Source of the DNA: Verrucomicrobiota bacterium
GTDB taxonomy: Bacteria > Verrucomicrobiota > Kiritimatiellia > CAIQIC01 > JAGNIJ01
DNA: 64,000 nt
Direction of reading: 5' to 3'
NCBI GenBank assembly: GCA_043803015.1
Contig: JAZDKK010000026.1
Coordinates: 20,707 to 84,706 of the forward strand
Shown: piece after piece, positions 25,004 to 30,219 of the stretch
Position numbering within the stretch: position 1 is the stretch's first letter
Layout: every line of letters starts with the position of its first letter
Program-made: the position numbers and the translations under genes
The notes under the pieces: model-generated
Databases searched by the model: none
Seen by the model: only the letters and a program-made list of their open reading frames with translations
Told to the model about the DNA's origin: nothing

Positions 25004-26184
<1,181 letters not shown>

Positions 26185-26191
<7 letters not shown>

Positions 26192-26655
26192 TTTACGCGA
26201 ATTCGCGCGAATTCAGGGAGGAAACCGCCTTGGCTAAACTCCTGGAGAAGGACCTCGTCTACCGCATTGTCGGCTGTGCCATGAAGGTCCACACGGAAGT
26301 CCGCTACGGACTGCGGGAGAAGACCTACGAACGTGCGCTGTGCGTCGAGTTCCGCCACCAGGGGATTTCGTTCAATCAGCAATGCGTTTATCCCGTTCTC
26401 TATCGGGACGAGAGGATCGACGAGTATATCCCTGACCTCGAAGTAGAGGGCCGGGTGCTGATTGATGCCAAGACGATCGAGAACATCACGGATATCGAGC
26501 GCGGCCAGATGATGAACTACCTCCGCATCTCCGGCCGCAAGGTCGGCCTCATCATCAACTTCAAACACCCGTCCTTGCAGTGGGAACGCGTCGTGCTGGA
26601 TTCGGCCCGCTGACTTTCTTCTCTTCAATTCGCGCACATTAGCGTAAATTAGCGG
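26185..26655. mobile_element. Putative IR-bounded single-gene cassette (GxxExxY)
   Basis: Left CCGCTAATTTACGCGAATTCGCGCGAATT (26185-26213) against the reverse complement of 26627-26655, CCGCTAATTTACGCTAATGTGCGCGAATT (26/29). Mobility is inferred. Confidence 0.6.
26230..26613 (+). CDS. GxxExxY protein (PD-(D/E)xK-like), flanked by 29-bp inverted repeats
   Basis: YGLREKTYE, DLEVE...IDAK, QMMNYL...GLIINF; TTG start after GGAGG; lower GC than its neighbours. Confidence 0.9.
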   Translation: MAKLLEKDLVYRIVGCAMKVHTEVRYGLREKTYERALCVEFRHQGISFNQQCVYPVLYRDERIDEYIPDLEVEGRVLIDAKTIENITDIERGQMMNYLRISGRKVGLIINFKHPSLQWERVVLDSAR

Positions 26656-26672
26656 TGCCTTAGCGGTGGCCT

Positions 26673-27926
26673 ATGGAAGCCTTCACTTACAAGAACGGCC
26701 AGCTGCACGCGGAGGGCGTCGGGGTCGCTGAACTCGCCGCCCGCCACGGCACCCCTCTGTTCATCTACAGCCGCACGCACCTCGAGGAGCAGTACCGCGC
26801 CCTGGCCGCCGCGATGAAGGCGGTCGAGCCGCTCCTCTGCTTCTCCGTGAAGGTCAATACCAACGCGGCGGTGATCAGGACGTTCGCCGACCTCGGGGCC
26901 GGCGCCGACGTGGTTTCCGGCGGCGAGCTGTTCCGCGCGCGCCGGGCCGGCGTGCCCGCGGACCGGATCGTCTTCGCCGGCGTGGGCAAAACCGTCGAGG
27001 AGATCGAGTACGCCCTGAAAGAGGGCATCCTGTTTTTCACCGTCGAGTCCGAGGCCGAGCTGGAGCGGATCGCCGAATGCGCGGTGCGCCTGCGCCAGAC
27101 GGCGCGCGTGGCCCTGCGGGTCAACCCGGACGTGGACCCGAAGACCCACCGCTACATCAGCACGGGAAAGAAGGAGAACAAGTTCGGACTGGACCTCGTG
27201 CGGGCCGAGCGCGCGTACGAGCAGGCCTCGCGGCTCTCGAACCTCGAGATCGTCGGCCTGCACATGCACATCGGCTCGCAGATCCTTTCGCCGGAGCCGT
27301 ACGCGGAATCGCTGGAGAAGGTCGCCGGCCTGTGCCAGCAGCTCAAGCGGCGGTTCCCGTCGTTCAAGTACATCGACTTCGGCGGCGGACTGGGCATCCA
27401 GTACAAATACGAAGAGCGTCCGCTGGACCCGCGCCGTTTCGCGGACGTGGTCGTGCCGCACCTGCAGGAGTTCGGCCTCTCCGTGGTCATGGAGCCGGGC
27501 CGCTTCCTCGCCGGCAACGCCGGCATCCTCGTGGCGCGCGTGCAGTACGTCAAAGAGAACTCCGTCAAACGGTTTGTCATCGTGGACGCCGCGATGAACG
27601 ACCTGATCCGCCCGCCGCTCTACCAGGCGCACCACGAGATCGTGCCGGTCCGGGAGACGTCCGGGACCGTCCTCGGCGACGTGGTGGGCCCGGTGTGCGA
27701 GTCCGCCGATTTTCTCGCCGTCGACCGCGAGCTCCCGCGCGTGCAGGCGGGCGACCTCCTGGCCGTTCGCGGCGCGGGCGCGTACGCGTTCGCGATGGCC
27801 TCGAACTACAACAGCCGCGGCCGCGCGGCCGAGGTCATGGTCTGGGGCGCGAAGAGCGCGCTGATCCGCGAGCGCGAGACCCGCGAAGACCTCGTCCGCG
27901 GCGAGAAGACGCCCAAGTGGAAGTAA
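26673..27926 (+). CDS. lysA: Diaminopimelate decarboxylase
   Basis: FSVKVNTN, DVVSGGE, LRVNP, KFG, HMHIGSQ, DFGGG, EPGR, GPVCESAD, GAYAFAMASNYN. Confidence 0.97.
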   Translation: MEAFTYKNGQLHAEGVGVAELAARHGTPLFIYSRTHLEEQYRALAAAMKAVEPLLCFSVKVNTNAAVIRTFADLGAGADVVSGGELFRARRAGVPADRIVFAGVGKTVEEIEYALKEGILFFTVESEAELERIAECAVRLRQTARVALRVNPDVDPKTHRYISTGKKENKFGLDLVRAERAYEQASRLSNLEIVGLHMHIGSQILSPEPYAESLEKVAGLCQQLKRRFPSFKYIDFGGGLGIQYKYEERPLDPRRFADVVVPHLQEFGLSVVMEPGRFLAGNAGILVARVQYVKENSVKRFVIVDAAMNDLIRPPLYQAHHEIVPVRETSGTVLGDVVGPVCESADFLAVDRELPRVQAGDLLAVRGAGAYAFAMASNYNSRGRAAEVMVWGAKSALIRERETREDLVRGEKTPKWK

Positions 27927-28019
27927 CTCGCGCCGGCGCGACGCGCGTTTTTCCAATCCGCCTGCCTGCCAGCCCCGCGGCCCGGGGGCAGGCTGGCCCC
28001 GCACGCTGTGCGTGGGGCG

Positions 28020-28102
28020 GGCAGGTCCTTGGAGAAATGGCTCGTATCTTTTTCCAATCCTTGAAAAAATGGCTCCTAGATTTTCCAATGTCTGGAAAAA
28101 AA
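28020..28102. repeat. TTCCAA-N3-TTGGAA-type palindromes, 31-bp phased
   Basis: Half-site TTGGAG at 28029; TTCCAA-TCC-TTGAAA at 28052; TTCCAA-TGT-CTGGAA at 28083. Confidence 0.85.
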
Positions 28103-28116
28103 GGCCGAGGTGCCAC

Positions 28117-28983
28117 ATGTTCGAAGGTGCTTATACAGCGATAGTTACGCCGTTCAACAAGGACGGCAGCGTGGATTTCGCTAAACTCCGCGACCTGATC
28201 GAATTCCAGGTCAAGAACGGGATCGACGGCATCGTGCCGGTCGGAACGACCGGCGAGTCGCCGACGCTCGACTACGAGGAGCACGAGAAAGTCGTCGAGG
28301 TTTCGGTCCAGGCGACGCGGAGAAGGATGAAAGTCATCGCCGGCACGGGCGCCAATTCGACCCGCGAGGCGCTGGAGCTGACCCGGCACGCGATCGGGGC
28401 CGGGGCGGACGCGACCCTCCAGGTCACCCCGTACTACAACAAGCCGAACCAGGCCGGCCTGATCAAGCACTTCACGGCCGTGGCGGACCTCGGTCTGCCG
28501 ACGGTGCTCTACAACATCCCCGGCCGGACCGGCCGCGAGATCGATGTGGCCACGGTGGTCGAGCTGTCGAAGCACCCGAAGATCGTCGCGCTCAAAGAGG
28601 CGGGCGGGAGCGTGGACCGCGTGAGCCAGATCGTAACCCGCTGCAAGATCGAGGTGTTGTCCGGCGACGACTCGCTCACCCTGCCGATGATGGCGGTGGG
28701 CGCGCTCGGCGTCATCAGCGTGGTTTCCAACATCGCGCCCAAAGCGGTCGCGGACCTGGTGCACGCCGCCCCGAAAGGCGACTGGAAGCAGGCGCAGGCG
28801 CTGCACCAGAAATACTACCGGCTGTTTACGGACCTCTTCATCGACACCAACCCCATCCCGGTCAAGGCGGCGATGGCGATGATGGGCCTGTGCGAAGAGG
28901 TGTATCGTCTGCCGCTCTGCGAGATGGCGGCGAAAGGCAGAGAGACGGTGAGAGAAACACTCAAGGCGCTTGGGCTGATTTGA
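28117..28983 (+). CDS. dapA: 4-hydroxy-tetrahydrodipicolinate synthase
   Basis: TAIVTPF, GTTGES, AGTGANST, LYNIPGRT, LKEA, NPIPVK. Confidence 0.97.
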   Translation: MFEGAYTAIVTPFNKDGSVDFAKLRDLIEFQVKNGIDGIVPVGTTGESPTLDYEEHEKVVEVSVQATRRRMKVIAGTGANSTREALELTRHAIGAGADATLQVTPYYNKPNQAGLIKHFTAVADLGLPTVLYNIPGRTGREIDVATVVELSKHPKIVALKEAGGSVDRVSQIVTRCKIEVLSGDDSLTLPMMAVGALGVISVVSNIAPKAVADLVHAAPKGDWKQAQALHQKYYRLFTDLFIDTNPIPVKAAMAMMGLCEEVYRLPLCEMAAKGRETVRETLKALGLI

Positions 28984-29409
28984 TTGCCGATTGCCGATGT
29001 CCGATTGCCGAATGAAGAGATGAACAAGAACGACCTGAAGGAGCGAACCAAGAGCTTCGGACTTCGTTGCGTCAATCTGACGAATGCCCTGCCGAAGACT
29101 GCGGCCGGCCACGTGCTGGGCAACCAGCTGCTCAGGGCCGGGACCTCCGTCGGGGCCAACTACCGATCGGCCTGCAGAAGCAGGTCAACGGCAGAGTTCA
29201 TCGCGAAGATCGGCGTGGTGGAAGAAGAGGCAGATGAATGCTGCTACTGGCTGGAGATAGTCCGCGACGCCAAGCTGATGAAAGCGGCCCTTCTTCAATC
29301 TTTGTTGCAGGAAGCGGATGAGCTGACTGCTATAATGGCAGCGTCTCGTAAATCGGCGGCAAGGAATCGTCGTCGCTGATTCGGAAATCGGCATTCGGAA
29401 ATCGACAAT
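28983..29409. mobile_element. Putative cassette: four-helix-bundle gene between inverted heptamer arrays
   Basis: (ATTGCCG)n at 28983-29013 against the reverse complement of 29379-29409 (25/31); spans exactly dapA stop to dapB ATG. Mobility is inferred. Confidence 0.6.
29020..29379 (+). CDS. Four-helix-bundle protein (bAvd/23S-IVP-like)
   Basis: DLKERTKSF, QLLRAGTSVGANYR, S.AEFIAK, EEADECCYWLE, EADEL.AI; lower GC. Confidence 0.92.
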   Translation: MNKNDLKERTKSFGLRCVNLTNALPKTAAGHVLGNQLLRAGTSVGANYRSACRSRSTAEFIAKIGVVEEEADECCYWLEIVRDAKLMKAALLQSLLQEADELTAIMAASRKSAARNRRR

Positions 29410-30219
29410 ATGAAAAAAGTGGTGGTCATAGGTGCCGCTGGCCGGATGGGGCGAACCCTCGTTCATTGCCTGGAAGCGGAAACGGTGCCGGGCCTCGAGC
29501 TGGCGGCCGCCGTAGACATCTGGGACTGCCCGGAGCGCGGCCAGGATGCAGGGATCGTGGCGGGCTGCGGCGAGATGGGCGTGAAGATCTCGTCGGACCT
29601 CGCGGAGGTCGGCGCGGCGTGCGACGTCGTGATCGACTTCAGCGCGCACCAGGGGACCGCCGGCAACGCGCAGCGGGTGGCCGAGTGGCGCAAGCCGCTG
29701 GTCATCGGAACGACAGGGATGACCCCCGAGGAGAAAAAGGTCATCGGCGAGGCCGCGGCGACCATCGCGATCGTGATGTCGCCGAACATGAGCCTCGGCG
29801 TGAACCTCCTGTTCTCGCTGGTTGAGAAAGCGGCCGGCGCGCTGAAGGGCAAGGGCTACGACGTCGAAATCATCGAGCGGCACCATCGCCGCAAGAAGGA
29901 TTCGCCCAGCGGAACAGCGCTGGCGCTCGGCGAGGCGGCGGCCAGGGGGCTCGAGTGGAAGCTCGACCAGGTGGCGATCCACGGCCGGCACGGCCTGCAC
30001 GGCGAGCGGCCCGCCCAGCAGATCGGCTTTCACGCCGTCCGCGGCGGCGACATCGTGGGCGACCACACCGTGCTGTTTGCCGCCGAAGGCGAGTGCATCG
30101 AGCTCTCCCACCGGGCGACGAGCCGCGAGGCGTTCGCGCTCGGCGCGCTGCGCGCCGCGGCGTGGTCGATCGGCCGCGCCCCGGGCCTGTACACCATGCG
30201 GGACGTGCTCGGGTTGTAG
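29410..30219 (+). CDS. dapB: 4-hydroxy-tetrahydrodipicolinate reductase
   Basis: GAAGRMG, VIDFS, VIGTTG, SPNMSLGVN, IERHHRRKKDSPSGTA, RGGDIVGDH. Confidence 0.97.
   Translation: MKKVVVIGAAGRMGRTLVHCLEAETVPGLELAAAVDIWDCPERGQDAGIVAGCGEMGVKISSDLAEVGAACDVVIDFSAHQGTAGNAQRVAEWRKPLVIGTTGMTPEEKKVIGEAAATIAIVMSPNMSLGVNLLFSLVEKAAGALKGKGYDVEIIERHHRRKKDSPSGTALALGEAAARGLEWKLDQVAIHGRHGLHGERPAQQIGFHAVRGGDIVGDHTVLFAAEGECIELSHRATSREAFALGALRAAAWSIGRAPGLYTMRDVLGL

Follow-up and report, generated by a model that had tools for sequence, protein, structure and literature searches.

The 64,000-nucleotide (nt) stretch of DNA analysed here (the window) is part of contig JAZDKK010000026.1 of a Verrucomicrobiota bacterium (assembly GCA_043803015.1), a metagenome-assembled genome (MAG) that we call G000. 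Between argG and lysA, which encode argininosuccinate synthase and diaminopimelate decarboxylase, lies a 473-nt unit (26184-26656) in which a single gene for a small protein of the GxxExxY family stands between two inverted arrays of a short repeated word. Hereafter we call this unit the argG-lysA cassette, its two arrays the arms, and the encoded protein the cargo protein. The locus contains the following features, all read on the + strand.

25004..26191, +: argG, argininosuccinate synthase (NF001770, 622 bits), with its last codons and TAA stop in the first repeat unit
26184..26213, +: left arm, words CGCTAAT (26186-26192), CGCGAAT (26196-26202) and CGCGAAT (26206-26212), with AACC as outer end
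26189-26191, +: argG stop TAA, inside word 1 (from the sequence)
26216..26221, +: Shine-Dalgarno-like GGGAGG, 8 nt 5' of the TTG start of the cargo gene (read from the sequence)
26230..26613, +: GxxExxY gene, 127 amino acids (aa), from TTG at 26230 to TGA at 26613 (profile matches, AlphaFold2 model, alignment)
26614..26626, +: pyrimidine tract CTTTCTTCTCTTC (from the sequence)
26627..26656, +: right arm, words ATTCGCG (26628-26634), ATTAGCG (26638-26644) and ATTAGCG (26648-26654), with GGT as outer end
26659..26665, +: extra duplicated terminal (fourth right-hand) unit (C)TTAGCG, 8 nt 5' of the lysA ATG; D1 family
26673..27926, +: lysA, diaminopimelate decarboxylase (TIGR01048, 494 bits)

The arms form a genuine inverted repeat. 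Each is 30 nt long, 27 of the 30 positions are complementary, and 413 nt separate the two. Their inverted-repeat score of 21 was reached by none of 1000 dinucleotide shuffles of the flanks (mean 7.6, maximum 17). An earlier note, made from the sequence alone, had described this repeat as 26/29; the repeat stands and its size is corrected. The same note had recognized an internal periodicity of about 10 bp, and indeed each arm comprises three units of the word CGC[G/T]AAT at an exact spacing of 10 nt. Its statements that the left repeat contains the argG stop codon and that the cargo is AT-richer also hold: the TAA lies inside word 1, and the cassette has 57% GC compared with 65-70% in the flanks and 65.7% genome-wide. 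We found no promoter-like or terminator-like site in the cassette, and an Rfam scan of 25800-29600 returned no match. The cassette is adjoined by argG and lysA and thus lies outside 23S rRNA helix 25/45. At the position equivalent to the Shine-Dalgarno-like GGGAGG, the cassette of the related genome G013 has GGGAGGGG.

The cargo protein belongs to the GxxExxY family and appears to be an intact, minimal nuclease. It scores 128.2 bits on TIGR04256 (GxxExxY, cut-off 35) and 116.2 bits on PF13366 (PDDEXK_3, cut-off 22), and these are its sole Pfam and NCBIfam matches. No catalytic residue is missing from the putative active site, formed by E30, D69, D79-A-K81 and Q93..Y97. A 57-member alignment shows no variation at G27, E30, K31, Y33, D69, K81 and N110, and little at Q93, N96 and Y97. 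At position 79, 46 of the 57 sequences have E and 11 have D, among them the cargo protein; this bears out the earlier remark that D replaces the commoner E at the catalytic site; A80 occurs only once in the alignment. Judged from these residues, the signature E...D...(D/E)xK...QxxxY is that of RecB, Cas4 and lambda-exonuclease-type nucleases. The AlphaFold2 model (predicted local distance difference test score, pLDDT, 94.3) has a restriction-endonuclease-like alpha/beta fold, a minimal PD-(D/E)xK. Its best Foldseek matches in the Protein Data Bank (PDB) are LHK-Exo, lambda exonuclease, Cas4 SSO0001 and the Holliday-junction resolvase Hjc, with TM-scores of ~0.5, and a PDB search with the cargo protein sequence matched no solved structure.

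PF13366/GxxExxY is one of the larger prokaryotic families of no known function. Our profile search found 36,927 GxxExxY cluster representatives (50% identity) at E <= 0.001. A 2012 survey of the superfamily listed PF13366 as 'Unknown' and reported multiple transfers between bacteria and archaea; a search of the literature at full text found no publication on repeats or genomic packaging of GxxExxY, PF13366 or PDDEXK_3. Viral contigs yielded only 5 relatives, with no sign of a phage vector. Many of the top family matches (for example P0001-P0011) are proteins of ~250-295 aa with two tandem GxxExxY domains. Such two-domain fusions (~265 aa) suggest that the working unit of GxxExxY is at least a dimer.

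Framing by inverted arrays is a property of the family, not of one locus. In the source genome, inverted repeats frame four of the five GxxExxY genes and seven of the eight genes for an unrelated four-helix-bundle protein, each with its own sequence and internal period. We then took 80 GxxExxY loci from public genomes, which with the argG-lysA copy make 81; the phyla sampled include Verrucomicrobiota, Acidobacteriota, Planctomycetota, Desulfobacterota, Proteobacteria, Chloroflexota and Nitrospinota, as well as Methanosarcinales. A flanking inverted-repeat score of at least 13 was found at 42 of 78 loci (54%) but at none of 146 control positions shifted by 800 nt within these loci. The same 7-mer occurs at least twice on either side, inverted, at 57 of the 81. 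The earlier note had proposed a class of single-gene units bounded by inverted repeats, and had suggested that the flanks of other GxxExxY copies be inspected; the repeats are there, in this genome and at most GxxExxY loci elsewhere.

The arms share a common design. Of 246 intervals from word to word, 160 measure exactly 10 nt, 31 measure 9 nt and 9 measure 11 nt, and arms most often have three units. The unit can be generalized as C-R-Y-N-R-A-T followed by three bases, as in CACAGATGAA, CACGAATGAA and CGCGAATGAA, and the outer end is AGCC or AACC. With three left and three (plus one) right units at 10-nt spacing, the argG-lysA copy matches this class of decamer-array cassettes, an informal class for which we found no published definition. 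Units inside one arm are ~80% alike. Between arms, units agree at 8.59 of 10 positions in register and 8.25 out of register (p = 0.11); because the difference is not significant, the inverted repeat is in essence a pair of arrays of the same unit in opposite orientation. Moreover, the word type tracks the protein tree: all of the closest proteins (55-78% identity; Verrucomicrobiota, Kiritimatiellota and unclassified MAGs) have AACC-CG[CT]NAAT arms. Gene and arrays make up a single evolutionary unit.

We compared the argG-lysA junction among relatives of the same order as G000. The junction exists in a series of states.

G000: intact cassette, 481-nt spacer
G008: intact cassette, same word class, 464-nt spacer, protein 78% identical
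G013: intact cassette, same word class, 474-nt spacer, protein 68% identical
G019: truncated cassette, left arm and first ~33 residues (~26%) of the protein gone
G010: gene-less decamer hairpin, other word, CACGAAT, 3+3 units
G004: gene-less decamer hairpin, other word, CACGAAA
G002: gene-less decamer hairpin, other word, CACGGAT, 2+2 units
G007: gene-less 7-mer hairpin
G001, G005: 59-nt spacer with weak remnants
G006, G009: empty junction (argG TAA, one base, lysA ATG)
G014: empty junction (14 nt)

The site is thus occupied in four genomes and empty in three, and holds unrelated hairpins in others. This is the empty-site comparison that the earlier note had called for, and the junction does prove polymorphic, even inside genera. 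Because its state differs inside two genera, gains or losses are still going on. The argG-lysA copy itself is old, as shown by its presence in relatives from three taxonomic families. Between the G000 and G013 cassettes, synonymous divergence (pS) is 0.80, which is saturated, nonsynonymous divergence (pN) is 0.20, and the left arms are identical at 26 of 30 positions with the word cores intact. Protein and words are therefore both under purifying selection. In G019 (L017:1082-1400) the truncation is a microhomology-type deletion: AATGAA in the first repeat unit was fused to the same six bases within the gene.

Stop codons had been proposed as the target of such elements, and the comparison does not support this. 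In G000, G008 and G019 argG runs into the first unit and stops inside it, but G013 still has the native stop of argG, which lies 5 nt upstream of its array. The stop inside the array therefore looks secondary, the result of a small deletion or fusion, and not an insertion target. We also considered the reading frame, which would argue for a single insertion if the first unit lay in the argG frame in every occupied genome; G008 breaks the pattern and the argument was dropped.

The general rule is instead a short junction between co-directional operon genes, with the cassette on the same strand. Among 40 framed loci with both neighbours present (by simple open reading frame (ORF) calling), 28 are co-oriented with both and one is opposed to both. 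The outer edges of the arms lie ~0-25 nt from the upstream stop and from the downstream start. Close relatives of the cargo protein sit at other junctions, namely acyltransferase/AIR-synthase-like, HlyD/AcrB, saccharopine dehydrogenase/carboxynorspermidine decarboxylase and ExbB/ExbB, and the neighbours at these junctions are functionally linked genes. For its expression the GxxExxY gene evidently depends on read-through transcription from the host.

Arms also occur away from any GxxExxY gene, and in the source genome such solo arrays share words with resident GxxExxY genes. A gene-less hairpin of 3+3 units at C33:20455-20526 has the word of the C56 gene (CACTAAT), a gene-less pair on C44 has the terminal sequence of the C57 gene (TAGCCGCGAGAGAACGCA), and two lone CGCGAAT-type arms on C16 and C40 match the argG-lysA cassette. 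A junction hairpin of G004 likewise shares its word with a GxxExxY gene of that genome. Upstream of the C57 cassette (G000:C57:53968-54127) are tandem direct repeats of ~50 nt, each with the terminal sequence of that cassette (GCCGCGAGAnAACGC).

The relative G010 is the extreme case. It has 48 triple-CACGAAT arms, compared with none for a reversed-pattern control; they form 18 inverted pairs, only one of which encloses a GxxExxY gene, and 12 arms are alone. The arm (AACC plus ~30 nt) is almost identical in every copy. Some arrays are nested: the loops of L194 and L195 hold hexamer-type arrays (TAATCT/TAATCG) with a hairpin of their own, and the loop of L185 contains a lone CACAGAT-type arm.

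Known systems offer partial parallels. REP-associated tyrosine transposases (RAYTs) are Y1 HUH enzymes encoded by single-copy genes between inverted copies of the repeats on which they act, the repetitive extragenic palindromes (REPs), of which many gene-less inverted doublets lie between genes; REPINs are copied together with their spacer, and REPs are not phased tandem arrays. G010, with one gene, 48 arms and 18 pairs, is REP/RAYT-like, and the source genome has few solo arrays. The differences are that the GxxExxY cargo is a PD-(D/E)xK and not a Y1 HUH protein, and that the loops between arms are unrelated. With Cas4, RecB and lambda exonuclease the cargo protein shares the catalytic signature and the best structural matches, but it is half their size and has neither the Fe-S cysteines nor CRISPR or recombination partners.

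The closest precedent is Ssn (Chenal et al., Nat Commun 2025, PMC11893778), in which small GIY-YIG nuclease genes lie between NTS/SRM repeats, which their products bind and cut as single-stranded DNA (ssDNA). Ssn homologues have their own repeat variants, and repeats on both sides were found for only 42% of ssnA homologues (PMC11893778). Like the GxxExxY cassette, Ssn has a small single-domain nuclease gene between short repeats that also occur gene-less elsewhere in the genome. The nucleases differ, being GIY-YIG (cd10448) there and PD-(D/E)xK here, with no GIY-YIG match for the cargo protein; and whereas NTS/SRM is a single hairpin, the GxxExxY arm consists of three phased 10-nt units and does not fold by itself. 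Genes for small nucleases with their own repeats as a frame are already in print for two other enzyme folds. What is new to the literature we searched is the GxxExxY version: a PD-(D/E)xK fold, phased triple-decamer arms, the filling of junctions and conservation at the level of the arm.

We propose that the cassette is a minimal Cas4/RecB-type nuclease paired with its cognate repeats and riding on operon transcription, the best-supported reading and one to which we give an even chance. The module, a very widespread one, consists of a promoter-less PD-(D/E)xK nuclease gene between inverted arrays, typically of three 10-nt-spaced units with a clade-specific 7-nt word. The nuclease would be a sequence-specific reader (a binder, and probably a cutter) of its own phased words, both in cis and in trans, and by this interaction the arms would be held to a uniform sequence and enabled to spread or persist. 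On transcription of the operon the arms could pair into a ~30-bp stem bracketing the ORF, as in ORF-bearing 23S rRNA intervening sequences, and that stem may limit damage to argG-lysA expression. Such a unit could persist in operon junctions, where it would be transcribed for free and do little harm. The proposal draws together the framing across the family, the agreement between word and clade, the constraint on the arms, the in-trans matches, the kept catalytic residues, the operon riding, the Ssn precedent and the predicted stem.

A number of observations weigh against this proposal. The structural matches are weak (TM ~0.5), so that Cas4-like chemistry is only a lead. Agreement of word and clade could reflect co-inheritance alone. 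Solo arrays in the source genome number only four, that is, one or two hairpins and two lone arms, and the junction hairpin of G002 (CACGGAT) mismatches the sole GxxExxY locus read in that genome (L167, a partial copy). In G010 the loops between paired arms are 7-56 nt long and mutually unrelated in both sequence and length, and the spread or homogenization of the arms does not resemble REPIN copying. A phase of 10 nt is suggestive of duplex DNA, yet single-stranded hairpins are what Ssn and RAYT act on. A wobble test on the arm mismatches, read as sense RNA, gave 46 G:U and 30 A:C (p = 0.085); this weak excess neither supports nor excludes a role for RNA. We compared the G010 loops with the gene and ruled out that they are remnants of its deletion.

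The rival that survives best, although we consider it unlikely, is an autonomous transposon-like or homing element, in which the nuclease would cut the terminal inverted repeats or empty sites and move the ~470-bp unit into the stop codons of housekeeping operons. The earlier note had suggested the cargo nuclease as a possible mobiliser. Small PD-(D/E)xK homing endonucleases exist, I-Ssp6803I among them. Several of our results fit: different genomes carry one protein and word clade at junctions unrelated to one another, presence at argG-lysA varies inside genera, relatives of 65% identity occur in other phyla, and the cassette is AT-richer than its host. L113 and L127, cassette-length paralogues in one genome, share ~80% identity that is confined to the gene and arms. 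However, we found no target-site duplication at the argG-lysA copy, at 35 other cassettes or at the 18 G010 arm pairs, and no shared target motif among the cassettes examined; the sites are too diverse for a sequence-specific homing enzyme, and integration is beyond one nuclease alone. Nor were there recent cassette-only duplicates: paralogues within a genome are 65-80% identical, and the 14 identical GxxExxY copies in G045, a Solibacteraceae MAG, are passengers in a larger 2199-bp repeat. The argG-lysA copy is ancient and stable, with synonymous sites saturated between orthologues, and its stop inside the array is secondary. Finally, the arms of G010 are homogenized while its loops are unrelated, so the whole hairpin is not the copied unit and the fit to simple cut-and-paste of one element is poor. 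Bacterial miniature inverted-repeat transposable elements (MITEs; Correia/NEMIS, ERIC) also lie between co-transcribed genes and can form RNA hairpins. They have target-site duplications, conserved interiors and a DDE transposase elsewhere; for GxxExxY cassettes we found none of these three features, nor near-identical copies of whole elements.

The G045 repeat is of interest in itself. It spans L141:2589-4787 (G045:C1:14088-16286), has CTAG at both ends, and is present in at least five copies that are 100% identical. Next to a 531-aa ORF without a Pfam or NCBIfam match it holds a GxxExxY cassette that is complete and has 8-nt arrays (TCTTGGCG). The repeat may represent an insertion sequence that has not been classified.

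Could the element instead act purely at the level of RNA? The arms would then pair in the polycistronic mRNA, the stem would be cut by RNase III or would couple lysA translation to argG termination, the operon would be insulated, and the role of the protein would be unrelated or absent. The parallel is with the 23S rRNA intervening sequences of Coxiella and Leptospira (PMC4990558). That of Coxiella has a 28-bp stem around a ~430-nt ORF-bearing unit, is an RNase III substrate and has tandem heptamers in its arm (PMC4990558). The dimensions are alike (a unit of ~430-470 nt, a stem of 28-30 bp, a loop with a small ORF, and arms with short tandem repeats); the GxxExxY cassette differs in lying in an mRNA operon junction, in its nuclease-fold cargo and in having a stem that is predicted only. 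The minimum-free-energy RNA fold of 26170-26690 includes this long-range stem, extended over the Shine-Dalgarno region (z = -2.9), and just inside it the pyrimidine tract CTTTCTTCTCTTC is predicted to pair with the Shine-Dalgarno region. Cassettes are strongly biased towards the orientation of their host operons, their arms adjoin the stop on one side and the start on the other, and the neighbouring dapA/dapB cassette holds a true intervening-sequence-type protein. RNase III is present in 15 of 15 good-quality relatives; it was not found in the source MAG, which we attribute to incompleteness because that MAG is 66% complete and the relatives have the enzyme.

Nevertheless, we think a purely RNA-level element improbable. 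A stem requires complementarity and not repeated identical words: if only a hairpin were needed, compensatory drift would be tolerated and nothing would make the units within an arm alike. The word cores are kept across saturated divergence and the units within an arm are ~80% alike, so the constraint on the arms is at the level of the word. Conservation of this kind is unneeded for a stem, and the phased words point to a sequence-specific reader. In addition, the excess of G:U over A:C mismatches falls short of significance, G010 has many arms that stand alone or enclose arbitrary loops, and purifying selection acts on the protein, whose active site is intact. The RNA stem is likely a by-product, possibly a useful one.

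A bolder alternative takes the arm itself as the mobile or maintained unit. Because the arms of G010 are conserved and the loops are not, it is the arm, rather than the whole hairpin, that is conserved or homogenized there. GxxExxY proteins might then be word-specific nucleases that write, copy or homogenize their own phased arms at junctions, whatever lies between; the unit would be the ~30-nt arm, and the gene, other arrays or arbitrary sequence would be loop contents. We hold this to be a doubtful generalization. If it were true, GxxExxY cassettes, together with the 7-nt arrays of the four-helix-bundle proteins, would make up a new class of protein-plus-repeat elements, and the origin of ORF-bearing rRNA intervening sequences would be explained.

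Least probable of all is a domesticated host function, with the nuclease a defence or DNA-repair enzyme or a regulator, the arrays its autoregulatory operators and the operon position incidental: long-term vertical retention under purifying selection, several divergent paralogues per genome and a 10-bp phasing that would resemble operator or iteron arrays on one face of B-DNA speak for it, but close relatives have lost every trace of the gene (their junction is either empty or occupied by a hairpin without a gene), the gene has no conserved partner gene or defence-island context, the arrays stand on both sides and also far from any gene, and there is no promoter of its own for operators to control.

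On the proposal of a nuclease with cognate repeats, the clade-specific, exactly phased arrays around the genes open the function of the family to direct experiment. If the proteins are sequence-specific for their many words, they would form a natural library of small nucleases, programmable by choice, a possibility already raised for Ssn. Through this locus, ordinary operon junctions are also connected with the ORF-bearing rRNA intervening sequences, which have long lacked an explanation, and the series of states at argG-lysA (intact, truncated, gene-less and empty) is material for reconstructing the arrival and decay of such elements.

A sister cassette lies 2.3 kb from the argG-lysA cassette and spans exactly from the dapA stop to the dapB start. 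The earlier note had matched the two in architecture, correctly: a four-helix-bundle gene stands between inverted 7-nt arrays, and its product is a 23S rRNA intervening-sequence-type protein.

28982..29403, +: sister cassette, with inverted 7-nt arrays (GATTGCC units) at 28982-29004 and 29381-29403
28984-29379, +: four-helix-bundle gene (TIGR02436/PF05635; profile matches)

Tandem arrays in G000 have a period of 7 nt in 104 cases, 8 nt in 18, 10 nt in 7 and 11 nt in one. The 104 heptamer arrays far outnumber the 8 four-helix-bundle genes; one example is a gene-less heptamer hairpin at C16:26545-26640. A separate palindromic repeat, TTTTCCAA(N3)TTGGAAAA, occurs repeatedly between genes in G000 (for example at C44:1760-1790) and in its relatives, at loci of G011, G014 and G021.

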